A DNA stretch of 18,446 nt from a virus (taxonomy: Duplodnaviria > Heunggongvirae > Uroviricota > Caudoviricetes): the IMG/VR virus record IMGVR_UViG_2526164613_000015, one strand, 5' to 3'. Position 1 is the stretch's first letter; every line of letters starts with the position of its first letter. Position numbers and translations under genes: made by a program. Shown here in pieces: positions 1,833 through 15,188 of this stretch. Below the pieces are notes generated by a model. That model saw only the letters and a list, made by a program, of their open reading frames with translations. It made no database searches and was not told the origin of the DNA.

Positions 1833-2939
1833 TCAAACAATCTGGAAAATATTTCTTGGATTTGTAATAGGTCTGTTGATGGAGAACAACTCACGAATTA
1901 AATCTTGGCTCAAGCCAGTTTTCATAAGAATTCTTAGCCAGGTTGCATCATCCAGCATTTCAATCGCCTCGGCCAGCATGCCGGGTTCTTCAGGGCGCAA
2001 AAGTTCATCACCAGGTTCAACTCTCGTATACCCTCTGGAATTAAGATGCATATAGCCAGTTCTTGCCTGTTCCTGGGTCAATAAGCCTAATGCGCTGGCT
2101 CGATAAATACACATTTTAAGGCTGATTTTCCATCTAAGTTTAAATTCAACCAGAGCATTCCAGTCGAATTGCTTACCTCGTATTCGTGGAAATTCTTTAA
2201 TGAAAGATAACCTGGGAACTAATAAGGCGCTCGAAAAGTGATCGGCTTGTGATTCCGTAAGTTTATCACCTGTCGTTATGCCCTCATGCATTACTAAATG
2301 CCCTAATTCATGACCTAAATCAGAGCGAAATCTACATATGCTTTTTTTAACATTGTTCCTGATGATAACAGGCCTGTTATTGTGAACAGTAAAAGCATCA
2401 ACACGATCATCGACTCCCGTAACATGCGCAACGATTACCCCTAAACTCTCCGCCAATTTAACCATTGATGATATAGGGCCAAGACCTAAATTCCAGGCAC
2501 GGCGACAATCTTCTGCCACTCGCTCAATATCATTCGGAGTAAGTAATTCAGCCCCTGGGTGCTCCGGTATGTTAACGTCAGGAAATTCGATTTCACCTTC
2601 AACAGCAGAAATTATAATATTAAGAATCTCAGCCCTGGCCAATACACTATTAGTCAGCGTTTGAGTCCTGGACTTCTTACTCCGAAAATGGCAGACATCA
2701 CTTTCCAGAGCGTATTTTCGTTCAGTAAAAAGAAAACTGGACTTAATCATAAGCGCTGAAGATATTAACTCAAGACATTGCTCCGATGGCCTGCACCCCT
2801 TCTCCAGTTTGCTAACAAATTGCTTTGTCTTGCCAATTTTTTCGGCTAACTCTTCACAAGAAAGCCCAACAGCCATTCTCGCTAGTTTGAGCTTATCACC
2901 CCGATACTCAGTGAAGTTATTCACCTGATGTTCCATCAC
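1833..2939 (-). CDS. fused XRE-type HTH / ImmA-IrrE family zinc metallopeptidase (COG2856-like), 368 aa
   Basis: N-terminal HTH (LARMAVGLSCEELAEKIGKTKQFVSKLEKG); HEXXH zinc-binding motif in SDLGHELGHLVMHEG; start is GTG at 2939 or ATG at 2936; overlaps upstream ORF by about 20 nt. Confidence 0.8.
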   Translation of the reverse strand: MMEHQVNNFTEYRGDKLKLARMAVGLSCEELAEKIGKTKQFVSKLEKGCRPSEQCLELISSALMIKSSFLFTERKYALESDVCHFRSKKSRTQTLTNSVLARAEILNIIISAVEGEIEFPDVNIPEHPGAELLTPNDIERVAEDCRRAWNLGLGPISSMVKLAESLGVIVAHVTGVDDRVDAFTVHNNRPVIIRNNVKKSICRFRSDLGHELGHLVMHEGITTGDKLTESQADHFSSALLVPRLSFIKEFPRIRGKQFDWNALVEFKLRWKISLKMCIYRASALGLLTQEQARTGYMHLNSRGYTRVEPGDELLRPEEPGMLAEAIEMLDDATWLRILMKTGLSQDLIRELFSINRPITNPRNIFQIV

Positions 2940-3567
2940 TGCTCACATCCAAATCTTTATCCTTCGTACGCCGACGAAGAGGCACCTTATTAATCTCCGC
3001 TTCGTCAGGGAGTGTGTTATAATCAAGAGGCATAAGCGGCATCGATGCTGTAGATTGATGAGAAACTATACTAATCTGAGCACCATAAGTATTAAATCCA
3101 ACAAGAGCTACCTCCCAACGAGGCAGTGTGGACTCTAATTCACCATCGCCCTCTTCGGATAAAAAAGGCTCAGCTATGACTCGCCATGTAATATCTTGCT
3201 CAGCCTCAACATCACCAAACAATGAGAGCTGCTCATACTCTACTTTATTTCGACGCAGACGATGTTTCTTTTTGGGGTTATTAATGCAATCTTTGGTAAA
3301 TTGTAGCGGAACTTTATTTAAAGCAACTACATAGTCCAACCCCTTGGAAATCATCTCAAGGCCAGGAATTGCATCTTCATTTTGAATAAGATGATTTCTG
3401 ACCCAATCATAAGCCCTTACACCTTCAGACCAGTTGCTGTCTAATGCGTGCTTATGATAGTACAGCTGCTCAAGTACGTTAGCGATCTCCGCCAACAAGT
3501 GGCGAACATAGTTTTCAGCAAGATAAGGTTGAAATTCCCAACAAGGAGCTAACTGATTTTCATTCAT
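2917..3567 (-). CDS. hypothetical acidic protein (216 aa), first gene of a two-gene operon with the HTH-ImmA peptidase
   Basis: ATG at 3567; no TM segments; acidic stretches (GDVEAEQD, SEEGDGELES); stop overlaps start of 1833..2939; preceded by promoter-like sequence with perfect TTGACA. Confidence 0.6.
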   Translation of the reverse strand: MNENQLAPCWEFQPYLAENYVRHLLAEIANVLEQLYYHKHALDSNWSEGVRAYDWVRNHLIQNEDAIPGLEMISKGLDYVVALNKVPLQFTKDCINNPKKKHRLRRNKVEYEQLSLFGDVEAEQDITWRVIAEPFLSEEGDGELESTLPRWEVALVGFNTYGAQISIVSHQSTASMPLMPLDYNTLPDEAEINKVPLRRRTKDKDLDVSSDGTSGE

Positions 3568-3732: not shown

Positions 3733-3888
3733 TTACTCCTCAGGTTCGTAAGCTGTGAAGACAGCGACCTCCGTCTGGCCGGTTCGGATTCGTACCTCGC
3801 AGAGGTCTTTCCTCGTTACCAGTGCCGTCACTATGACGGTTAAACAGATGACGATCAGGGCGATTAACATCGCCTTTTGCTGCTTCAT
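3733..3888 (-). CDS. hokD: Hok/Gef family type I toxin (51 aa), HokD/RelF-like
   Basis: Manual translation of minus strand gives MKQQKAMLIALIVICLTVIVTALVTRKDLCEVRIRTGQTEVAVFTAYEPEE, matching HokD/RelF as recalled; single TM helix plus conserved C-terminal Cys region. Below the 60-aa ORF-track cutoff. Confidence 0.85.
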   Translation of the reverse strand: MKQQKAMLIALIVICLTVIVTALVTRKDLCEVRIRTGQTEVAVFTAYEPEE

Positions 3889-4099
3889 AGCCTGCTTCTC
3901 CTTGACCTTTTGGTCCGTAAGAGGCTAATCTCTATGTGTCGCATAGATATGGCCTCAGATTAATGTTAAGCGTCTTGCAGGACGCGTAATGTTAACTGGG
4001 GCTTTTCTCTATCTGCCTTTTGGTGTTCATGCCTGAGGCAGATAGCCTCAAGCACCCGCAGCAATTCTACTTAACTCCCGTCACCTCGCCAATATAAAA

Positions 4100-4259: not shown

Positions 4260-5291
4260 CTACCAATCAATAAAATCAGTGATGTTATCCAACCTAATTA
4301 CAGTAACTTCCCGTCTCAACTGGTTTTTCCAATATATCTCACGAGCGTTTTGTTCACCAGCACCGCTCCACTCAATTACTCTTAAAGGCTTAGAGGTTAG
4401 GTAAGGTCGAATAAGCAGGTTAAGGTGAATATCGAGACCAGAGTAACCAAACAATATTATTTCTTCTGATTCAAATAATGCAAACTGCAAATAATCCCAG
4501 TACGTAGAAAGAACATTAGATGCTGCTATAACTGACGGTTTTCTTTTTATATGAGTTAACACTATATGCTCACTAGGTTCATCTATGTCAAGAGTAAGTT
4601 GTGAGCGTGAAAGTTTTAAAACATTTTCATGCTGATTAATAAATAGTGGTGAACCATGCAAGTGCAAATAATAACCAAACCTACGATTGTATTTCCGTTC
4701 GAGCGCTGCAGAGGAAAATCCGTGGCTTAGCATCCCATCAACTAAAACCCCATCATACCCGTTGAATATATCATTATCTATGAATGAATTGTATAATAAT
4801 TTGTCATAGTTTAATGTCGCGATATGTGAGTGTGTGTTCTTTACAAACTCCACAAGCGCATTTTCGAATCTTTGTGGCAAACCTTTATCGTAATTATGCA
4901 ACCTGGTTGCAACTTTGTGAATATAAGTGGCGGTAATTTTGGGGAAGTTTAGTCCATCTTCAGTAAGCCAATGCACGTTCCCCTCTCCAATTTGAGCAAG
5001 AGCTTTACAATATGTGACAGCCTGGTGAAGGGTATCCAACTCATGTTCTCCTTCTGGTGGACCTTGCCGCTGAAGACAACGCTCGATAAGTTGCTTGTGG
5101 ATATCTTTTAAAAAATTGGGGCGATGCCAAATTTCTTCCAACGCTCTGTCTAAGGAGAAGTGAGCAGGATCTAAAGCCATACCGAGACCGTTGCCGAATA
5201 TTATTAATTTTCTTGCCATATAGGGGGACTCATATTGGAATAACGCTGGATAGCGTAGCGCGATACGCTTAAGTTTAGGATTAATAGACAT
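4260..5291 (-). CDS. SIR2-like (sirtuin-fold, SIR2_2/DUF4020-type) putative NADase, 343 aa, stand-alone
   Basis: Ordered motifs LIIFGNGLGMA (Gly-rich loop), ATLNYDKLL, YLHLHGS, ILFGYSGLD as in defence-associated SIR2 domains; gene and 370-bp upstream region are markedly AT-rich. Confidence 0.8.
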   Translation of the reverse strand: MSINPKLKRIALRYPALFQYESPYMARKLIIFGNGLGMALDPAHFSLDRALEEIWHRPNFLKDIHKQLIERCLQRQGPPEGEHELDTLHQAVTYCKALAQIGEGNVHWLTEDGLNFPKITATYIHKVATRLHNYDKGLPQRFENALVEFVKNTHSHIATLNYDKLLYNSFIDNDIFNGYDGVLVDGMLSHGFSSAALERKYNRRFGYYLHLHGSPLFINQHENVLKLSRSQLTLDIDEPSEHIVLTHIKRKPSVIAASNVLSTYWDYLQFALFESEEIILFGYSGLDIHLNLLIRPYLTSKPLRVIEWSGAGEQNAREIYWKNQLRREVTVIRLDNITDFIDW

Positions 5292-5659
5292 TCCGTTTGA
5301 TTACACTCGTTATTACAAACTTGCATGCAAAGAAGCCCAAGCTGTTAGGTAAACAGAGACCGCAGTGGCAAGATAATCTAGATATAGCCTATAAAATCCA
5401 ACAACAAATAGCGGCCTGTTTTCTATGACTTTTCTTTTCCCTAAATATCACTTATCTAATAAAATGCAATAATGTATTGCACAGTATTTAATGTGTATTA
5501 ATATAGATAAGTATTGGTCTTATTTGATAACAAATCCTGAGCCTCAAAATGTCTGCTTTTCACACAAAACCAACAAGTAGGCTATTTTTAGCTCTGTGCC
5601 GCGAAAATGTCAATTCATATCCGAACCAATACTCTTTAATTTCATTACCTGTGACAATT

Positions 5660-6067
5660 CTAGGCATATCCCTGATAGAACGCCAATACACGCTGCATAA
5701 CTTCGCTCTTCCGGCACTCGCGACAGATTATGTTCATACGCCTGTCGTAGCGGCGTATTTCTCCGTCGGGTAATGTCCAGATAAGGCCCGGATCAACCAC
5801 AACAGGTTTCTTCACCTTTGCCCTCGAGAGTTTTTTGCGGGCGTTTTGCCAGTCCTTACGAGCCTGTTCTGACGGGAACAACCCATAGCCAGAGTGATAT
5901 ACATCACCACTGGCAACCAGCTCTCTGGCAAGAATGCTCATCAGATATCTTGTCGCACCTGTTTTAGCTTCCAGTTGCCGTAGCGTCTCACGACCGCTCT
6001 GGCGCACGAGTTCCACCACCTGCCCTTTAATTTTTTCCCGCTCTTCTTGTGTAAAAACTTTTGCCAC
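5660..6067 (-). CDS. hypothetical prophage protein (135 aa), basic C-terminus, downstream of replication initiator
   Basis: GTG start with GGGGG Shine-Dalgarno-like element 4-5 nt upstream; 40 nt after the initiator gene stop; no family recognised. Confidence 0.5.
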   Translation of the reverse strand: MAKVFTQEEREKIKGQVVELVRQSGRETLRQLEAKTGATRYLMSILARELVASGDVYHSGYGLFPSEQARKDWQNARKKLSRAKVKKPVVVDPGLIWTLPDGEIRRYDRRMNIICRECRKSEVMQRVLAFYQGYA

Positions 6068-6107
6068 AAGTCCCCCTTAAAATTACCTCATGACCTGAAA
6101 TCAACAC

Positions 6108-7073
6108 TTATCCCCTGAAACCAGGCGGAATTTCTGTATCCGGTTCAGAAATATGATTCACACAACGCTGTATAGACGAACGCCCCAGACGGATGACCAG
6201 TTCATCCCATTTTTCACGAAGCTTTGACGGGCTCATGATGTTTTTTACCCAGAATGGATCTCGCTGTACCCGACCAAACATTTCGCAAATTTGTCTGTGG
6301 CTTCTGCCATCCAGCATCCGCATTGTGCGCACGTCATTGGCCCAGGCAGTCCAGTTAGGCTCTTTTGGTCGCATGATCTCGCCATCATCACTGGCTGCCT
6401 GTTCGTAGAGACCCACGATCCGCCCCCAGATCCACTGCGCACACGCCAAATCCTCCCTGCTACCCCACTGGCGTTTTTTCGCACTAAACACAACCGCGTC
6501 GGAGTTCCGGGTTAAAAAATCCTGTTCAGTCGTCTGCGGGTCCGGTTGCGAAGCTTCCGGACGAAAAGTGTTTTTATTCTCTGTAGTAATCTCTGTTGTA
6601 TTCTCTGTAAGATCATCAGGCCATTTTGACCCGATGACATTGGGTCGTTTTGAACCAATGGAGCGTTTCATTTTGACCTCTTCCATCGTGTCATTTTGAC
6701 CTGATGGAGCGGCGCATTTTGAACCGATGGATTCGCTCAATTTGCCACCATCTAAAAGCTCGCTCCCATAGTTGATCGTGTAGAAATTGGTCATATCGCG
6801 CTTTGATTTATTGAGCTTTTCACAACGCAAAAGCCCCAGCGTTTTCAGACTTGCAAACGCGCGCTTTAACGTTGACTCTGACCAGAATGGGAACTGTTCC
6901 AGCCATTGTTCCGTTGTGTTGTAAATCCAGCGAACACCATCACATTCCATGCCGGAATTGGTATCTCTCAACCAGTAATGCAACTGCTGCAACACAATGG
7001 CTTCATTTAAGCCAATCTTCATCGCAAGCTGTGTGTTTATAACCAGTGGGCGTTCAGCAAAAAGAAGGCTCAT
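6108..7073 (-). CDS. phage replication initiator (lambda O-like replisome organiser) with DnaT-like C-terminal domain
   Basis: N-terminal HTH-like region; central repeat-encoded linker (IGSK repeats); C-terminus ...SEPDTEIPPGFRG resembles the E. coli DnaT C-terminus as recalled. ATG at 7073 preferred over the TTG at 7127. Confidence 0.7.
   Translation of the reverse strand: MSLLFAERPLVINTQLAMKIGLNEAIVLQQLHYWLRDTNSGMECDGVRWIYNTTEQWLEQFPFWSESTLKRAFASLKTLGLLRCEKLNKSKRDMTNFYTINYGSELLDGGKLSESIGSKCAAPSGQNDTMEEVKMKRSIGSKRPNVIGSKWPDDLTENTTEITTENKNTFRPEASQPDPQTTEQDFLTRNSDAVVFSAKKRQWGSREDLACAQWIWGRIVGLYEQAASDDGEIMRPKEPNWTAWANDVRTMRMLDGRSHRQICEMFGRVQRDPFWVKNIMSPSKLREKWDELVIRLGRSSIQRCVNHISEPDTEIPPGFRG
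6581..6752. repeat. replication-origin-like iteron array inside the initiator gene
   Basis: Five to six direct repeats with core ATTTTGA(C/A)C at exact 23-bp spacing (TTTTGA at 6625, 6648, 6671, 6694, 6717, degenerate 6740), preceded by three 12-bp CTCTGT-containing repeats (6581-6615). Confidence 0.65.
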
Positions 7074-7575
7074 AATTCCATCCAGCTTTTTGTTGGTATT
7101 GCTGTCGATACGCAAGTTTGAAAGCAATTGCTTTTTCTATAAGTTCGTCAGTTTCACGATCCACTACGGCAGGATCAGCAAAAAGCAGTCCGGACTCCAC
7201 CACATCGCCATATTCTTTGTTTAACCCGGCGATCATGTACGTGATGCTTTTTCCGTCACTAATTTCACGATACAACCTGAAATCATTAATCCGGATAGCC
7301 TCCATAATTGCAGGCACTAGCGCCGTGAACTTTTCACGCTTATCCCTAGTGTCGATAGCCTTCCAGCGTTCGAATATCTTCACTCGATTAACGCCAAGCG
7401 CTCGCTGATCAACCGCGCCACCTTCATCTGTGACACGCTGAACCTCGATGTTCGGGCGCTCTTTCAAAGCCCAGAATGCTTCAGTGATTAATATCGTCGC
7501 CTGCTCCTGTGTCATTCCTGGTCGACATATCCAGGCATCCAGAGCCTCACGAGCCTGTTCAGGAGTGATTTTCAT
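7054..7575 (-). CDS. hypothetical early-region protein (173 aa) at the CII/YdaT position downstream of the cro-like gene
   Basis: ATG at 7575; overlaps the cro-like stop by 17 nt and the initiator start by about 20 nt, indicating an operon; family not securely recognised. Confidence 0.55.
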   Translation of the reverse strand: MKITPEQAREALDAWICRPGMTQEQATILITEAFWALKERPNIEVQRVTDEGGAVDQRALGVNRVKIFERWKAIDTRDKREKFTALVPAIMEAIRINDFRLYREISDGKSITYMIAGLNKEYGDVVESGLLFADPAVVDRETDELIEKAIAFKLAYRQQYQQKAGWNYEPSFC

Positions 7576-7863: not shown

Positions 7864-8271
7864 ATGAACGAGAAAACTTTAGGTCAACGCATTAGAGAAA
7901 GACGTAAGCAGGTAGGCTTAAGTCAAAACGGTTTAAGCAAAGCTGCTGGCGTATCTGGCTCATCAATTTCATTATGGGAAAGTGACCATACAGCCCCGCG
8001 CGGGCAAAATTTGCATCGCCTCGCCGAGGTATTGCAATGTTCACCAACCTGGATACTGTTTGGCGACGAGGACAAAACACCAGCTCCCCCTGTTTCACTC
8101 GATAGTGCCTTAGACTTATCGGAAGATGAGTTAGAGATGTTGCGTTTGTATCGCGCACTTCCTAAATCAGAGCAACAAGCACAACTCAGCGAACTCCGCG
8201 CCCGCGTTGAGAATTTTAATCGCCTGTTCACCGAGCTATTAGAGGCTCGCAAACGCAACAAGCATCAATAA
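7864..8271 (+). CDS. dicA: CI-type prophage repressor, DicA-like XRE HTH protein (135 aa)
   Basis: HTH LGQRIRERRKQVGLSQNGLSKAAGVSGSSISLWES; motifs VLQCSPTWILFGDEDK and RARVENFNRLF resemble DicA as recalled; ATG at 7864 gives DicA-like length (ORF track starts at 7813). Confidence 0.8.
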   Translation: MNEKTLGQRIRERRKQVGLSQNGLSKAAGVSGSSISLWESDHTAPRGQNLHRLAEVLQCSPTWILFGDEDKTPAPPVSLDSALDLSEDELEMLRLYRALPKSEQQAQLSELRARVENFNRLFTELLEARKRNKHQ

Positions 8272-9559: not shown

Positions 9560-9612
9560 TTTCTGGTGACATTTGGCGGTATCAGTTTTACTCCGTGACT
9601 GCTCTGCCGCCC
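9560..9612 (+). ncRNA. dicF: DicF-like small RNA
   Basis: TTTCTGGTGACATTTGGCGGTATCAGTTTTACTCCGTGACTGCTCTGCCGCCC followed by TTTTT matches K-12 DicF as recalled with about one mismatch; lies immediately upstream of the dicB-like gene. Confidence 0.65.
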
Positions 9613-9786
9613 TTTTTAAAGTGAATTTTGTGATGCGGTGAATGCGGCTAAGCGCACGCGGAACAGTTAAAACCAAAAACAGTGTTATGGGTGGATTCTC
9701 TGTATCCGGCGTTAATTGTTAACTGGTTAACGTCACCTGGAGGCACCAGGCACTGCATCACAAAATTCATTGTTGAGGACGCGATA

Positions 9787-9975
9787 ATGGAAACGTTATT
9801 ACCAAACGTTAATACGTCTGAAGGTTGTTTTGATATTGGTGTTCTGCTCAGTAATAAAGCGTTTACTGAGGATGCCATTAATATGCGGAAATATGAGCCT
9901 TATCTGCTCAATGATAATTCCATACTTTCCCGAATTGCTCTTCTTGAACTTGGTATTTTCGGAGAACAGCAGTGA
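9787..9975 (+). CDS. dicB: DicB-like cell-division inhibitor (62 aa)
   Basis: METLLPNVNTSEGCFDIGVLLSNKAFTEDAINMRK... closely resembles the DicB N-terminus as recalled; GAGGA Shine-Dalgarno 7 nt upstream of the ATG. Confidence 0.75.
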   Translation: METLLPNVNTSEGCFDIGVLLSNKAFTEDAINMRKYEPYLLNDNSILSRIALLELGIFGEQQ

Positions 9976-10160
9976 CCTCAGCATTTGCACTGGTGATGAC
10001 CGTTTTTCTTATAACGGGTGAGCCGCAGAATGTAATTACCGGAATTTATGACAGTAAGTCATCCTGCATTCAGGTAAGGGACGAACAAAAAATCCCCGGT
10101 GAATGCCTCCCGTTAAAAAAAGTGTCGCTGAACCTGAATAACGAAATACCGGCTGGATAA
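9972..10160 (+). CDS. ydfD: YdfD-like small protein with N-terminal hydrophobic segment (62 aa)
   Basis: GTG start overlapping the dicB stop (GTGA), GGAGA Shine-Dalgarno 6 nt upstream; N-terminal TM-like segment AFALVMTVFLI; synteny with K-12 ydfD. Confidence 0.55.
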   Translation: MTSAFALVMTVFLITGEPQNVITGIYDSKSSCIQVRDEQKIPGECLPLKKVSLNLNNEIPAG

Positions 10161-10252
10161 CCCTCCAGCCATATTAACGCCATACCAACGGATTAAAAAT
10201 ACCAGCAATGGCAGGAATTTGTTCATCCTTAAAATGGTTATGAGGTTTATCA

Positions 10253-12670
10253 ATGAACGCTGATAAAGAAGAAATTGCACTATATTACGAAGCCAAAAAT
10301 GACAAAGTCAGAAAACGCCTTGGGATTAAAGGTGGTTTTTACTGGCGCACAGCAAAAAAATTATCGGTTGCAATATCACGCGGTGTTGCTGCAATGGACG
10401 ATGCCGGATTTGACGAAGAGGATTTTAAAAAACCCATCCGCGTCCATTTACCCGTTGTGAATGACCTTCCACCGGAAGGTGTGTTTGATACTGAATTCTG
10501 CAACCGATACGAAAAAGGCGGAGAAGATGGTATCACAATGATACTTATCGCGCCCTCTGTTCCGGACAAACCAGCCAGTACTGACAATACCAACGTCAAC
10601 GGCGAAGACATGGCTAAGATTGAGGAGAATATGCTTCTTCCGGTTTCAGGTCAGATTCTGCCTGTTCGCTGGCTGGCGCAACACAACAGCGAAAAACCGG
10701 TCACGCACGTTTCACTGGACAAACTGCGCGCATTACATAACGCACAGGATGAAAAACTTCCCGCCGTTACCGCGCTGGCCATCTCAAATAAAGCAGTGCA
10801 ACTCGAACCGCTGGAGATTCGGGATTTGTACAAACTGGAGCGAGACACTGACAAAGTTTTCCCCGCCCCCGTAAATTCGGACCTGGGACTGATGACCTCT
10901 TTTATCGAAGCATACCTGGGCGCTGACTACACCGATCGCGGTCTGCTTACAAAAGAGTGGATGAAAGGAAATAGTGTTTCACGCATCAGCCGCACGCCAT
11001 CCGGCGCTAACGCTGGCGGCGGCATTCTTACCGATCGCGGCGAAGGTTTTGTCCACGATGATGCGTCAGTGGCGCGTGACGTAGCCACTGGCGTACTGGC
11101 CCGTTCAATGGACGTGGATATTTATAACCTTCATCCCGCACACGCTAAACGCATTGAGGAAATTATCGCTGAAAATAAACCGCCATTTACTGTGTTTTTC
11201 AGCAAATTCATCACCATGCCGGGCCACAAGGATTACTCCCGCGCCATCGTGGTTGCGTCCGTGAAAGAAGCACCAATTGGTATAGAGGCTACTCCCCACC
11301 GTGTCACCGAATACCTGAATAAGGTGCTGACTGAAACCGATCATGCCACCCCTGATCCGGAAATCGTGGATATTGCCTGTGGCCGCTCCTCTGCCCCGAT
11401 GCCGCAGCGTGTAACAAAAGAAGGAAAACAGGATGATGAAGAAAAACCGCAGCCATCTGGCGCAATGGCAGATGAACAGGCAACGACTGAAGCAGTGGAA
11501 CCGGATACAACTGAACATAATCAGGACACGCAGTCGATGGATGCTCAGCCACAGATAAATTCTGTTGATGCGAAATATCAGAAACTGCGTGCAGAACTCC
11601 ATGAAGCCAAGAAAAACATTCCACCCAAAAATCCTGTCGATGCAGATAAATTACTGGCTGCTTCTCGCGGAGAATTTGTTGAAGGGATTAGCGACCCGAA
11701 TGATCCAAAATGGGTGAAGGGGATCCAGAGTCGCGATGATGATGACCAGAATCAGGATAAAGCGGAACAAAACAGCCCAAATGCGTTACAAAACGAGCCA
11801 AAAACAAAACAACCAGAACCAGTAGTGCAACAAGAACCAGAAAAAGTTTGCACCACATGTGGTCAGACCGGTGGCGGCAACTGTCCTGACTGTAGTGCGG
11901 TGATGGGGAACGCAACCTACCAGGAAACATTCGATGAAGAGAATCAGGCTGAAGCTCAGAAAAATGATCCGGAGGAAATGGAAGGCACTGAACATCTGCA
12001 CAAGGAGAACACTGGCAGCGATCAGTATCACGCCAGCGATAATAAAACTGGCGAAACAGCAAATCCCTTAATTAAAGTGAACGGTCATCATGAAATCTCA
12101 TCCACCAGCAGGTTGTGGCACCATCTGATGATTGACCTTGAAGCAATGGGAAAAAATCCTGATGCGCCAATAAACGCTATAGCCGGTAAGTTTTTTGATC
12201 CGGCAACCGGAGATATGGGGCCAGAATTCAGCAAAACTATCGATCTGGAAACCGCAGGCGGGGTCATCGATCGGGACACCATTAAGTGGTGGCTGAAACA
12301 GTCACGCGAAGCACAATCCTCCATTCTGACCGATGAAATCCCGTTGGATGATGCACTGCTGCAATTACGGGAATTTATCGACGAAAACTCCGGTGAATTT
12401 TTTGTTCAGGTCTGGGGTAACGGTGCAACTTTCGACAACGTGATTTTACGCCGTTCATATGAACGGCAGGGGATCCCCTGCCCGTGGCGTTACACCAATG
12501 ATCGCGATGTAAGAACGATGGTTGCTCTGGGACTGGTGATGGATTTCGACGCAAGAACGACTATTCCATTCGAAGGTGAACGCCATAACGCCCTGCACGA
12601 TGCGCGTTACCAGGCAAAATACGTTTCAGCCATCTGGCAAAAACTGATCCCGAGTCAGGCTGATTTTTAA
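10253..12670 (+). CDS. RecE/YdfE-like protein (805 aa) with C-terminal DnaQ-like DEDDh 3'-5' exonuclease domain
   Basis: C-terminal Exo motifs MIDLEAMG (D-x-E), [26 protein letters not shown] (H-x4-D); central acidic low-complexity region with zinc-ribbon-like [15 protein letters not shown]; GAGG Shine-Dalgarno; sits where lambda exo / Rac recE map. Confidence 0.8.
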
Positions 12671-12684
12671 TGTTCAACCCGGAT

Positions 12685-12712
12685 CGCCGCTAACGGCATA
12701 TAGTTAGCGGCG
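12685..12712 (+). promoter_or_regulatory. perfect 10-bp stem hairpin between the exonuclease gene and xis-like gene
   Basis: CGCCGCTAAC-ggcatata-GTTAGCGGCG; no U-tract follows, so function (terminator, attenuator or processing site) is unclear. Confidence 0.4.
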
Positions 12713-12728
12713 GTTGTGAGATATAGCT

Positions 12729-12932
12729 ATGAGCAGCATATTTTTAACCGAAAATGAATTGCAAACGTTAACGGGCTGCAAATATGCAAGCCACCAGCGC
12801 AACTGGTTAATAAAAAATGGGCTTCCGTTCTATACCAATCGTAGTGGAAAACCGATCGTCAGTCGGGAACTGTTTACCTGTATAAAAACTTTACCACCAC
12901 GTGAGGCTGAACCTGATTTCGGTGCGATCTAA
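12729..12932 (+). CDS. excisionase-like small protein (67 aa) translationally coupled to the integrase
   Basis: ATG start; stop TAA overlaps the integrase ATG (TAATG); immediately upstream of int as in lambdoid xis-int modules. Confidence 0.55.
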   Translation: MSSIFLTENELQTLTGCKYASHQRNWLIKNGLPFYTNRSGKPIVSRELFTCIKTLPPREAEPDFGAI

Positions 12933-13957
12933 TGGGAAGACGAAGGAAAAATCCCGAACACGAAAAATTACCGCCAAAGGTATACCCCAATAAATATAGT
13001 TATGTATGGAAACCGACATCCAGAGAATCTGTAACCTTAACTGCAATCGAGGATGGTTTAGCCGCATTATGGAAAAAGTATGAAGAAACGGTTAACCATC
13101 GCGATCGCGCAATGACATTTGGGCGTTTGTGGGAAAAATTTCTCGCCAGCGCCTATTACAGCGAGCTTAGTCCTAGAACTCAAAAAGATTATCTGCAACA
13201 TCAAAAAAAGTTGCTGGCCGTATTCGGTAAGGTGCTGGCCGATTCTGTAAAACCAGAGCACATCAGACGATACATGGACAAAAGAGGCGAGCAGAGTAAA
13301 ACGCAGGCAAACCATGAAAAAAGCAGTATGTCGCGCGTTTATAGTTGGGGGTATGAACGAGGGTATGTAAAGGCTAATCCTTGTGCCGGTGTAAGTAAAT
13401 TCAAGGCAAAAAACCGAGAGCGCTATGTGACTGACAAAGAATACCAGGCCGTATTAAGCGTGGCTCCTGTGCCTGTTTTTATCGCGATGGAAATTGCATA
13501 TCTGTGCGCAGCAAGGATTTCCGATGTGTTATCTCTGAAATGGGAACAGATCGGAAACGATGGGATCTTTATCCAGCAAGGTAAAACAGGAAAGAAACAG
13601 ATAAAAGCCTGGAGCCCCCGCCTGCAATCAGTTATAGAAAAAGCCAAACAACTCCCCAAGTCGGCCTATGTAATCAGCAATCAGTACGGCAACCGTTACA
13701 TGTATAAAGGATTTAATGAAATGTGGGTTGAGGCAAGAAATTTAGCAGGACAGATATCTGGGATCGCCACCGATTTTACGTTCCATGACCTTAAAGCCAA
13801 GGGGATATCAGATTACGAAGGTAGTAGCCGGGATAAACAACTTTTCTCTGGTCACAAGACCGAAGGACAGGTATTAATCTATGACAGGAAAGTGAAGATC
13901 TCACCTACACTGGATGTACCTTTACCCCAGAATATTCCAACAAAATATTCCAAGTAA
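12932..13957 (+). CDS. int: tyrosine recombinase / phage integrase (341 aa)
   Basis: C-terminal catalytic region FTFHDLKAKGISDY...SGHK...QVLIYDRK consistent with the His/Tyr box of tyrosine recombinases; 3' end lies about 50 nt from the tRNA-derived att core. Confidence 0.85.
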   Translation: MGRRRKNPEHEKLPPKVYPNKYSYVWKPTSRESVTLTAIEDGLAALWKKYEETVNHRDRAMTFGRLWEKFLASAYYSELSPRTQKDYLQHQKKLLAVFGKVLADSVKPEHIRRYMDKRGEQSKTQANHEKSSMSRVYSWGYERGYVKANPCAGVSKFKAKNRERYVTDKEYQAVLSVAPVPVFIAMEIAYLCAARISDVLSLKWEQIGNDGIFIQQGKTGKKQIKAWSPRLQSVIEKAKQLPKSAYVISNQYGNRYMYKGFNEMWVEARNLAGQISGIATDFTFHDLKAKGISDYEGSSRDKQLFSGHKTEGQVLIYDRKVKISPTLDVPLPQNIPTKYSK

Positions 13958-14009: not shown

Positions 14010-14071
14010 TGGCGGAGAGAGGGGGATTTGAACCCCCGGTGGAGTTGCCCCCACTCCGGTTTTCGAGACCG
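14010..14071 (-). other. 3'-terminal fragment (about 62 nt) of a tRNA-Ser(CGA)-like gene; attachment-site core / integration junction
   Basis: Reverse complement reads CGGTCTCGAAAACCGG...CGGGGGTTCAAATCCCCCTCTCTCCGCCA (anticodon loop with CGA, T-arm, acceptor 3' strand); 5' half of the tRNA is absent. Confidence 0.7.
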
Positions 14072-14465
14072 ATGATACAGAGTCGAAAAATCAAAGAGTT
14101 AAAAATTTTTCTTGGAATAAATGTCTTAAAATCGTACACGAAAAATCAATAAATTACATAACATTTAAAGAAGAATATTCCAAGCCATCTTGAGGCCACC
14201 ACCTGTTTTCAGGTGTCATTCAGACGTGATTTACCCCAGATTGGGAAAGCACGCTTTTTTTCTCAGCTTATTCCGTTTTGCCTGTGTGTTGAATAATTCC
14301 ACTGAAGTTATATAAAATCGGTAACGGCTGGAAATCATCCAATACTAGCACTATCGAAAGTTCACCAACCAACCGCAGTACGTTCTTGCATACGAGGTGC
14401 CGTGTTTTACATGCCGTACCGAGAATTAATTTCATTTTACGAAAAGTTAACCCGCCATTGCTATC

Positions 14466-15107
14466 TTAATTTTTTAAAACGAAGTTACCTCTGTCAGGGT
14501 CAAAAGCACAATTATCTCTTCCTACAATCATTGAAACTGCGATTGACTCCCTGCTCAAAGGATGAGCCGCCCTTGTTTTAACAAGATGTATTAATGCCAT
14601 TTTATCATACAACATACAAACATTTGAATTCATTGAATTCCTCATAAATACCCCATCTTCTGGTTCACATAATGTAACAGGGCATGTTCGTAAGCTCTCT
14701 GGCACTTGCAATTGTGCATGCTCCACATTAAATGCACATACTTCAATTTTATCTAACAACTCCTCTAACTGGTAGTTAGAAAGCAAATCCATATTTTCGA
14801 GCATCTCAATTTCACGCAGTACTGTAACTTCACGGCTTGTCAAACTACCATGATTAAGTGTACGTTCAATATGTTCTATATATTGAAGGCCAATCTGGAT
14901 ATTATCATTCGATAAACCATCCTGGTTAAGACTTCCCATAAAATATCCATTTACCTGCATAGGTCGTATTGACACCATCAACTCACCCAGTCTTATTTGA
15001 GCTTCTCCACGAATAGTCTGATTACGTATCTCAGACAAGGTTTCTTGAGGAATGTCAGACAAAAAACTAACCCCAGGTAAAATATAAGGCGTTAAATCTA
15101 CAGGCAT
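14466..15107 (-). CDS. nleG: NleG family type III secreted effector (U-box E3 ubiquitin ligase), 213 aa
   Basis: MP N-terminus; conserved C-terminal U-box region CPVTL...GVFMRNS...HPLSRESI...FD...GNFV shared with three downstream paralogs; AT-rich. Confidence 0.8.
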   Translation of the reverse strand: MPVDLTPYILPGVSFLSDIPQETLSEIRNQTIRGEAQIRLGELMVSIRPMQVNGYFMGSLNQDGLSNDNIQIGLQYIEHIERTLNHGSLTSREVTVLREIEMLENMDLLSNYQLEELLDKIEVCAFNVEHAQLQVPESLRTCPVTLCEPEDGVFMRNSMNSNVCMLYDKMALIHLVKTRAAHPLSRESIAVSMIVGRDNCAFDPDRGNFVLKN

Positions 15108-15188
15108 TCCTCTCCCTCCATTTTAATAACTTAATTTTGCTTTAGTAAAAAATAAAAGTACATAAAACTATATTTATATCATTAATTA

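Follow-up and report, generated by a model that had tools for sequence, protein, structure and literature searches.

The gene at nucleotides (nt) 10253–12670 of the IMG/VR virus record IMGVR_UViG_2526164613_000015 (18,446 nt in length, the whole of which is referred to here as the window) encoded an 805-amino-acid (aa) protein that was a modular phage nuclease, consisting of an N-terminal module (N-module) of about 370 aa similar to that of RecE from the Rac prophage of Escherichia coli K-12, an acidic linker of about 250 aa, and a nuclease head of the DEDDh type. The open reading frame (ORF) started with ATG, was uninterrupted by stop codons, and was preceded by a Shine-Dalgarno sequence, GAGG, at nt 10242–10245, 7 nt 5' of the ATG; its product was 100% identical to an annotated RefSeq "exonuclease" of E. 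coli O55:H7 strains. The gene was thus intact, as had been proposed in the initial annotation, which was made from the sequence letters alone. Two Pfam domains were detected in the product, PF06630 (Exonuc_VIII) at aa 56–187 (E = 1.8e-24) and PF16473 (Rv2179c-like) at aa 623–795 (E = 1.1e-60). The parts of the gene were as follows.

10253–12670, plus strand: complete coding sequence, 805 aa plus stop codon, chimera of a RecE-type N-module and a DEDDh head (ORF list, translation, RefSeq)
10253–11368, plus strand: N-terminal RecE-type module, aa 1–372, with an α/β subdomain at aa 1–100 and helical subdomains at aa ~130–240 and ~270–375
10585–12072, plus strand: homology to Rac recE at the level of DNA, with 82% identity, ending at codon 607 (blastn of the window against K-12 Rac)
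11369–12112, plus strand: acidic low-complexity linker, aa 373–620 (composition; predicted local distance difference test score, pLDDT, below 50 from aa 386 in AlphaFold2)
11543–11752, plus strand: conserved linker island, aa 431–500, 84% identical to RecE with a ratio of nonsynonymous to synonymous substitution rates (dN/dS) of 0.21
11849–11893, plus strand: Cys4 element, aa 533–547 (regular-expression match), aligned with CNACGQTGGDNCPDC of Rac RecE
12113–12667, plus strand: predicted DEDDh 3'–5' exonuclease domain, aa 621–805 (PF16473, fold, invariant residues)

The DEDDh nuclease head

The head matched PF16473 over the entire profile (positions 1–177 of 177) with 204.8 bits against a cut-off of 27. 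The DEDDh motifs quoted in the initial annotation were present and formed a complete catalytic set, that is, D628 and E630 in MIDLEAMG, D728 in TFDN, and H778-x4-D783 in HNALHD, and all five residues were invariant in alignments of 12 and 35 sequences that included DexA (exonuclease A) of phage T4 and stand-alone phage homologues. The AlphaFold model of aa 610–805 (pLDDT 87.7; predicted template modelling score, pTM, 0.84) possessed the RNase H-like α/β fold of DnaQ-type exonucleases. In a Foldseek search with this predicted model, T4 DexA was the best match (E = 1.4e-11, template modelling score 0.72), followed by RNase T, DnaQ domains and oligoribonuclease, and the 50 best fold matches listed were DEDDh proteins, none of them of the RecE or lambda Exo type. 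By sequence, T4 DexA was the sole relative of the head in the PDB (8KEL/8KEN, E = 1.7e-4), and PF12684, the family of the PD-(D/E)XK head, had no match in the 805-aa protein. A C-terminus of the RecE or lambda Exo type was ruled out by Pfam, the end point of the BLASTP homology to RecE (see below), tblastn, the fold search and the NCBIfam score, and the assignment to the DnaQ/DEDDh rather than the PD-(D/E)XK type, made earlier from the motifs, held on the PF16473 match, the sequence match to DexA and the fold search. Judged from its residues and predicted model, the head has everything that a DEDDh 3'–5' exonuclease would need, with a polarity opposite to the 5'–3' polarity of RecE.

T4 DexA has the DEDDh 3'–5' fold, and its D7, E9, D119, H186 and D191 aligned with the five residues of the 805-aa protein at an identity of about 24–26% to the head. 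However, it is a free protein of 227 aa with extra loops, and its source is a virulent phage with modified DNA, unlike the prophage setting of the 805-aa gene. The head also matched, from end to end, the domain family founded on Rv2179c of Mycobacterium tuberculosis, which is a chromosomal stand-alone exoribonuclease with neither a phage context nor a fusion. Homologues of the head were encoded in 689 phage genome records from many hosts, mostly as free proteins of about 185–230 aa. An internal start at Met625, from which the nuclease domain might be made as a free protein, was rejected for want of a convincing Shine-Dalgarno sequence; a 180-aa "free" homologue was likewise rejected as a stand-alone protein, being the tail of a disrupted fusion gene.

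The RecE-derived part and its mosaic relatives

In BLASTP, aa 58–607 aligned with residues 50–591 of K-12 Rac RecE at 73% identity, and the homology stopped at codon 607 (RecE codon 591) at both the protein and the DNA level. The nuclease domain of RecE comprises residues 564–866 according to a 2023 review (PMC11611040); the 805-aa protein is therefore RecE with its catalytic head swapped almost exactly at the domain boundary, and codon 607/591 marks the recombination joint at which the two nuclease heads differ. With the NCBIfam equivalog model for exonuclease VIII (NF007259) the protein scored 1031.9 bits, below the cut-off of 1269, and the match was limited to profile positions 1–602 of 877, whereas Rac RecE scored 1830.3 bits. 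The two proteins have in common the N-module, the acidic linker, the SDPNDPKW island and the Cys4 element, and their genes occupy equivalent slots in early-left operons adjoining xis-int. They differ in the head, PD-(D/E)XK with 5'–3' polarity in RecE versus DEDDh here, and in the first 57 aa of the 805-aa protein, which diverge from RecE. A further difference was in the gene that follows, which was recT in 80/80 recE loci and never in loci of the 805-aa type. For this and the following comparisons, 80 loci with a DEDDh head, all from related E. coli-type prophages with heads 86–100% identical, were set against 80 RecE controls, nearly all of them Rac.

The AlphaFold model of aa 1–420, built with 27 sequences (pLDDT 75, pTM 0.43), contained an α/β subdomain and two helical subdomains. 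No fold neighbour of the N-module was detected, since a sequence profile search of the PDB gave no match and Foldseek against the viral BFVD gave none below E = 0.4; the N-terminal domain of RecE was itself termed "of unknown function" in the 2023 review (PMC11611040). An invariant glycine-rich motif, R247-T-x-S-G-x-N-A-G-G-G-x-x-T260-D-R262, was found in the RecE-type N-module at aa 245–262 (nt 10985–11038 of the window), and its conserved stretch at aa 254–259 was predicted by AlphaFold to be a disordered, flexible loop. In a second subtype of the N-module, the whole glycine-rich core was replaced by an unrelated segment, RRSEKPT...DREDWKR, as in YdfE-like proteins. The N-module family was small, with 181 clusters among 1.84 billion representatives. 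Sixty-eight diverse long proteins with this module included 15 with a PD-(D/E)XK head (PF12684), 13 with a DEDDh head and 3 with a RecT domain, and both head types occurred in Salmonella, Enterobacter, Raoultella and others. The three RecT-matching proteins (best E = 1.2e-42) may be RecE-RecT fusions or products of read-through in gene calling.

The linker (aa 373–620) contained 20% D+E versus 10% K+R, and P, Q, S, T, N and G made up 42%. The long acidic linker with a Cys4 element noted in the initial annotation was thus confirmed by composition and by the regular expression, respectively, and both are common to Rac RecE. This linker was present in 80/80 DEDDh loci and in 80/80 RecE loci. Within its conserved island, the SDPxD motif occurred in 26/63 diverged long relatives and fell in near-invariant alignment columns. 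The Cys4 element, a putative zinc knuckle, is lineage-specific because it was present in just 4/63 of these relatives, a count by which its use as a family hallmark was ruled out.

The gene ydfE of K-12 is an annotated pseudogene overlapped by IS2E, in agreement with the disruption by insertion sequence IS2 stated in the initial annotation. Direct likeness between K-12 YdfE (306 codons) and the 805-aa protein was rejected (BLASTP E = 1.9). The first 256 residues of K-12 YdfE were, however, 96% identical to the start of an 823-aa exonuclease of the cultured phage mEp460, so that K-12 YdfE is the IS2-truncated start of a sister form. The mEp460 exonuclease has a head 85–89% identical to that of the 805-aa protein and the linker in common with it, and its gene lies in the same order, dicB-ydfD-exo-xis-int, without an annealase, but its N-terminal module of about 440 aa is its own and is unlike that of the 805-aa protein; in some variants of the YdfE type a short stretch of the N-terminus was 34–40% similar, and nothing more. 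The earlier designation "RecE/YdfE-like" was therefore correct for RecE over aa 58–607 and, with respect to YdfE, for the half made up of linker and nuclease, which is missing from K-12, but not for the surviving K-12 fragment. Among the 80 IMG/VR loci with a DEDDh head, the N-terminus was of the YdfE type in 53 and of the RecE type in 23. At least three mosaics are thus built on one linker, namely RecE-type N-module with PD-(D/E)XK head (Rac), RecE-type N-module with DEDDh head (the 805-aa gene), and YdfE-type N-module with DEDDh head (mEp460 and intact copies at the Qin locus). One such copy was found next to rspB in E. coli strain 1506 (nt 5128–7551 of that locus), where the attachment site used by Qin in K-12 still held an intact 807-aa YdfE-type exonuclease gene together with excisionase and integrase genes, in a prophage remnant otherwise riddled with IS1.

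DNA for the DEDDh head was present at a coverage of at least 80% in 4041/5426 complete E. coli genomes (about 74%), in up to 7 copies, and the RecE head was found in 1730/5426. Among the "exo" genes of lambdoid prophages in E. coli, the form with the DEDDh head is the most common. In pairwise comparisons with diverged copies (synonymous divergence, dS, above 0.05), the median dN/dS of the head was 0.11; against RecE, values of 0.20–0.23 were obtained for the folded N-terminal part and 0.36–0.63 for the linker outside its island. An ORF of at least 805 aa was found in 75/80 related viral loci, and frameshifted or truncated copies exist. These values show a conserved gene under strong purifying selection.

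The gene is abundant and already catalogued in RefSeq, Pfam and PHROGs, and is not a new kind of system; a literature search found no study of the fusion of a RecE-type N-module with a DEDDh head, and a search of a plasmid collection added nothing further. Very many E. coli and Salmonella proteins of this build carry the name "RecE family exodeoxyribonuclease" or that of "exodeoxyribonuclease VIII". Without the RecE nuclease head and without RecT, proteins so named are misleading in mining for RecET recombineering systems and in conclusions on prophage recombination.

Annealase search and proposed function

The initial annotation had reported no RecT/Bet-like annealase next to the gene, and this was borne out by Pfam and PHROG for the window and by tblastn for the whole 48-kb locus. 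Pfam and PHROG scans of every sizeable ORF of the window detected no member of the RecT, Bet, Erf or Sak families, the other ORFs being assigned to regulators, replication proteins, toxin-antitoxin and defence-like genes. No match was obtained by tblastn with Rac RecT, lambda Bet, Exo and Gam, and P22 Erf in the window, the 48-kb DEC5B locus that contains it, CB9615, mEp460 and three other loci. Sak, Sak4 and Rad52-like annealases were looked for just through the Pfam and PHROG scans of the window, and the other prophages of the genome were not searched. In the related IMG/VR loci with a DEDDh head, tblastn with RecT, Bet, Erf, Exo and Gam was positive in 0/80, whereas RecT was recovered in 80/80 loci with a RecE head; hence the RecE head and an annealase travel together, and the DEDDh head travels alone. 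A RecE head was detected by tblastn in 0/80 of the related loci and not in the window, nor was there a Gam or Abc-type inhibitor of RecBCD in the related loci or the 48-kb locus. A system of the lambda Red Exo/YqaJ type found no support either, with no matches to Exo, Bet or Gam by tblastn and no Pfam or fold matches of this kind. The order dicB-ydfD-exo-xis-int was repeated in the annotated contexts of other strains as well as in mEp460.

Taken together with the build of the protein, these results make it rather likely that the 805-aa protein is an annealase-independent exonuclease of DNA 3' ends, targeted by its N-module and trimming or degrading linear DNA in lytic development, and not a two-component recombinase of the RecET/Red type. 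The head would take nucleotides off free 3' ends by two-metal catalysis through D628/E630, D728 and H778/D783, with the histidine as general base. Its gene, immediately followed by xis-int in the early-left (dicBF) operon under the control of DicA, would be expressed on derepression of the prophage or on infection, and the nuclease would act alone, without a partner of the RecT/Bet/Erf type. Its targets could be the DNA of the host or of competitors, or recombination intermediates of the phage, to which the N-module would bring it through a targeting function shared with RecE. DNA rather than RNA is the presumed substrate, because the nearest characterised relatives, T4 DexA and its E. coli homologue EcD, are DNases (PMC12153337) and the other half of the protein is that of a double-stranded DNA exonuclease. 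Expression together with dicB on derepression is presumed because of the gene order, the lack of a plus-strand terminator and the lack of a convincing promoter of its own (see below). By analogy, the N-module and linker would have the same targeting or scaffolding role as in RecE. The protein is unlikely to work by a mechanism of the Red/RecET type, because the polarity is wrong for the production of 3' tails and the annealase that accompanies the RecE head was always missing.

Several points weigh against this proposal. PF16473 is named for a mycobacterial exoribonuclease, and the structural neighbours that came next after DexA are RNases, so that RNA is a possible substrate too. The N-module has no recognisable fold neighbour, and "targeting" is a guess. 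Resection in the 3'–5' direction would leave 5' overhangs, for which there is no obvious use in phage recombination, and the proposed purpose is vague. Expression from the dicBF promoter is deduced from gene order only, a stable hairpin (nt 12682–12718) follows the gene, and the locus counts represent a consistent pattern rather than 80 independent events.

One N-module thus serves two unrelated nucleases of opposite polarity, one of which was never accompanied by an annealase; this argues that the job of the module is neither RecT-specific nor polarity-specific, and the natural pairs with swapped heads offer an experimental handle on the unexplained N-terminal domain of RecE. A bolder proposal, to which a fairly low probability was given, is that the RecE N-module and linker are a nuclease-agnostic delivery device that docks any head onto a single kind of substrate or host factor, such as the ends of DNA, the replisome or a defence complex of the host. 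The DEDDh version could then be a one-protein weapon of conflict between phages or between phage and host, and not a recombination enzyme, serving the exclusion of rival DNA or the removal of a DNA-based immune signal. Rac RecE has been reported to degrade retron multicopy single-stranded DNA (msDNA) and to counteract restriction (bioRxiv 10.1101/2020.06.22.160242), which shows that "recombination" nucleases can have conflict-related effects and is no evidence on the 805-aa protein.

An unlikely function is defence against superinfection, in which the head would degrade the modified DNA, e.g. that containing 5-hydroxymethylcytosine (5hmC), of incoming T-even-like phages and spare that of the host. 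This activity, named "HREX", was reported in 2025 along with the structure of T4 DexA, when EcD was found to degrade 5hmC-containing T4 DNA and to protect cells against T4 (PMC12153337). The sequence of EcD (GenBank HAK9828821.1) was rebuilt from the primers of that paper and matching IMG/VR loci, Ala78 agreeing with the paper; it was 37% identical to the 805-aa protein over the whole head (E = 2e-33) and belonged likewise to PF16473. Its gene (nt 6401–6970 of an IMG/VR locus, minus strand) belonged to the early operon of a prophage resembling P2, where it lay between cox and a block of ParE-like, Dam methylase and gpA genes, so that the reported host defence is prophage-borne and the gene, like that for the 805-aa protein, is an early gene of a prophage. 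RosmerTA- and SIR2-like genes in the same prophage as the 805-aa gene (see below) and the occurrence of the head in 74% of E. coli genomes would also fit a defence role, as would dicB, which belongs to the same operon as the 805-aa gene and excludes some phages. On the other hand, EcD is a free protein of 189 aa and not a fusion, without a RecE-type N-module or linker, and the 805-aa gene lies in a repressor-controlled early operon instead of being a moron with its own promoter. PADLOC gave no match for the 805-aa protein, with a 2023 database that predates HREX. Trp152 of DexA, needed for cleavage of 5hmC DNA (PMC12153337), corresponds to Thr in the 805-aa protein (PWRYTNDRD) and varies among T, Y, C, W, F, V and S across the subfamily, and the position of DexA D169 was occupied by Asp in the phmmer alignment versus Val in the MAFFT alignment. 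Should the head act on foreign or modified DNA as DexA or EcD does, competition between phages would be shaped by it on a wide scale.

Just as improbable is a true substitute for RecE or lambda Exo, which would process DNA ends for recombination with host RecA/RecFOR or with the annealase of another prophage. The operon position is that of exo/recE, and about 550 aa are common to RecE, of which the full-length protein, and not the nuclease domain alone, raises linear-linear recombination (PMC11611040), indicating that the shared part matters. T4 DexA is reported to be involved in intron homing (PMC12153337), and a RusA resolvase gene has been kept in the prophage, though frameshifted in this strain. 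Nevertheless, 3'–5' polarity would destroy the very 3' tails that RecA and annealases use, the co-inherited annealase of the RecE head (80/80 loci) had no counterpart here (0/80), and the inhibitors of RecBCD searched for above were missing.

It was judged very unlikely that the protein is an exoribonuclease of the kind of Rv2179c, RNase T or Orn, with the 3' ends of RNA as its substrate, for instance those of transcripts from host or phage, of small RNAs or of short oligoribonucleotides. PF16473 was defined by such an enzyme, relatives are often named "3'-5' exoribonuclease" in RefSeq, and RNase T and oligoribonuclease were strong structural matches; but the closest relative by both sequence and structure is the DNA exonuclease DexA, with EcD a further DNase, the domain has the non-catalytic part of a double-stranded DNA exonuclease as its fusion partner, and RNase T-type enzymes cut DNA as well, so that the fold does not discriminate. 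A decaying, functionless remnant, left by illegitimate recombination of recE with the exonuclease gene of a phage, to which the frequent defectiveness of such prophages, the frameshifted or truncated copies and the loss of the K-12 copy to IS2 might point, was the least probable, being largely refuted by the strong purifying selection, the full-length ORFs in 75/80 related loci, the presence in the viable phage mEp460, and the occurrence of both head types across many diverged N-module lineages in several genera.

Prophage and operon setting

The whole window matched E. coli O55:H7 strain DEC5B (NZ_CP038389.1, 2106700–2125147, reverse strand), from which it differed by two single-base deletions (~230 and ~492) and two mismatches (710 and 18270), none of them in the 805-aa gene. 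Both deletions hit a DUF968/HNH gene (nt 21–1070), which was split in the window (ORF 424–1068) and intact in RefSeq. The window spans the early region and the left end of a Qin/dicBF-type lambdoid prophage. According to the RefSeq annotation of the same locus, the minus strand carries genes for DUF968/HNH, an HTH (helix-turn-helix)-peptidase protein, hokD, SIR2, DUF977, an O-like replication protein, YdaT/CII-like and cro, and the plus strand carries, in order, dicA-like, ydfA, DicF, dicB, DUF1482/ydfD-like, the 805-aa gene, DUF4224 xis-like and integrase. The position upstream of xis-int in the leftward-type operon, with xis as the next gene, was therefore as described in the initial annotation, DicF serving as the operon marker. 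The features that flank the 805-aa gene in this operon were as follows.

7864–8271, plus strand: gene for a DicA-like repressor, heading the leftward-type operon, 57% identical to K-12 DicA (RefSeq)
9561–9612, plus strand: small RNA DicF, which marks the dicBF operon (Rfam RF00039, 77 bits versus a gathering score of 48)
9787–9975, plus strand: dicB (RefSeq annotation of the identical locus)
9972–10160, plus strand: DUF1482/ydfD-like gene directly upstream of the 805-aa gene (RefSeq annotation of the identical locus)
12682–12718, plus strand: stable hairpin with a 13-bp stem, core CGCCGCTAAC...GTTAGCGGCG, between the stop codon of the 805-aa gene and the xis-like gene
12729–12932, plus strand: DUF4224 xis-like gene (ORF, RefSeq)
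12932–13957, plus strand: tyrosine integrase gene (ORF, RefSeq)

The order of dicB and then a ydfD-like gene recurs in K-12 Qin and in phage mEp460. In the 92-bp gap before the 805-aa gene, no terminator-like site was found on the plus strand, and the search for promoter-like sites gave just one 9/12 match (nt 10208–10235), within chance expectation. The hairpin after the gene had a folding energy of -24.5 kcal/mol (z = -3.4 versus shuffled sequences) and was not followed by a T-run; it may serve for processing or read-through. Between DicF and dicB, the leader (nt 9607–9771, plus strand) was 80% identical to the Rac stretch between kilR and the kilS small RNA (~7250–7416), and the early leaders of Rac kil and Qin dic are therefore related.

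The prophage ended near nt 14071, where homology to single-prophage O55:H7 strains stopped; those strains have a tRNA-Ser gene at the point matching nt 14071, and ARAGORN detected no tRNA in the window. This suggests that a second prophage was integrated in tandem at this tRNA-Ser site and that just a part of the tRNA remains (~14010–14100). Beyond nt 14071, the window contained the right end of this neighbouring prophage, with four type III effector genes of the NleG/DUF1076 type at nt 14466–17485 (minus strand), followed by a copy of IS2 at ~17550–18446.

In the rightward region of the first prophage, a RosmerTA-like gene pair was located at nt 1833–3567 (minus strand), consisting of RmrA (HTH and M78 peptidase, nt 1833–2939, PADLOC E = 6e-105) and RmrT (nt 2917–3567, E = 4.6e-25). 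A SIR2-like gene at nt 4260–5291 (minus strand) lay in a patch of low GC content (about 0.38–0.40) and gave weak PADLOC matches to Aga_SIR2 and PDC-S21 (about 1e-5); it is a possible defence moron, with no partner gene identified. The toxin gene hokD and the sok antisense RNA were found at nt 3733–4057 (minus strand; Rfam RF01794, 107.5 bits), forming a type I toxin-antitoxin module as in K-12 Qin.

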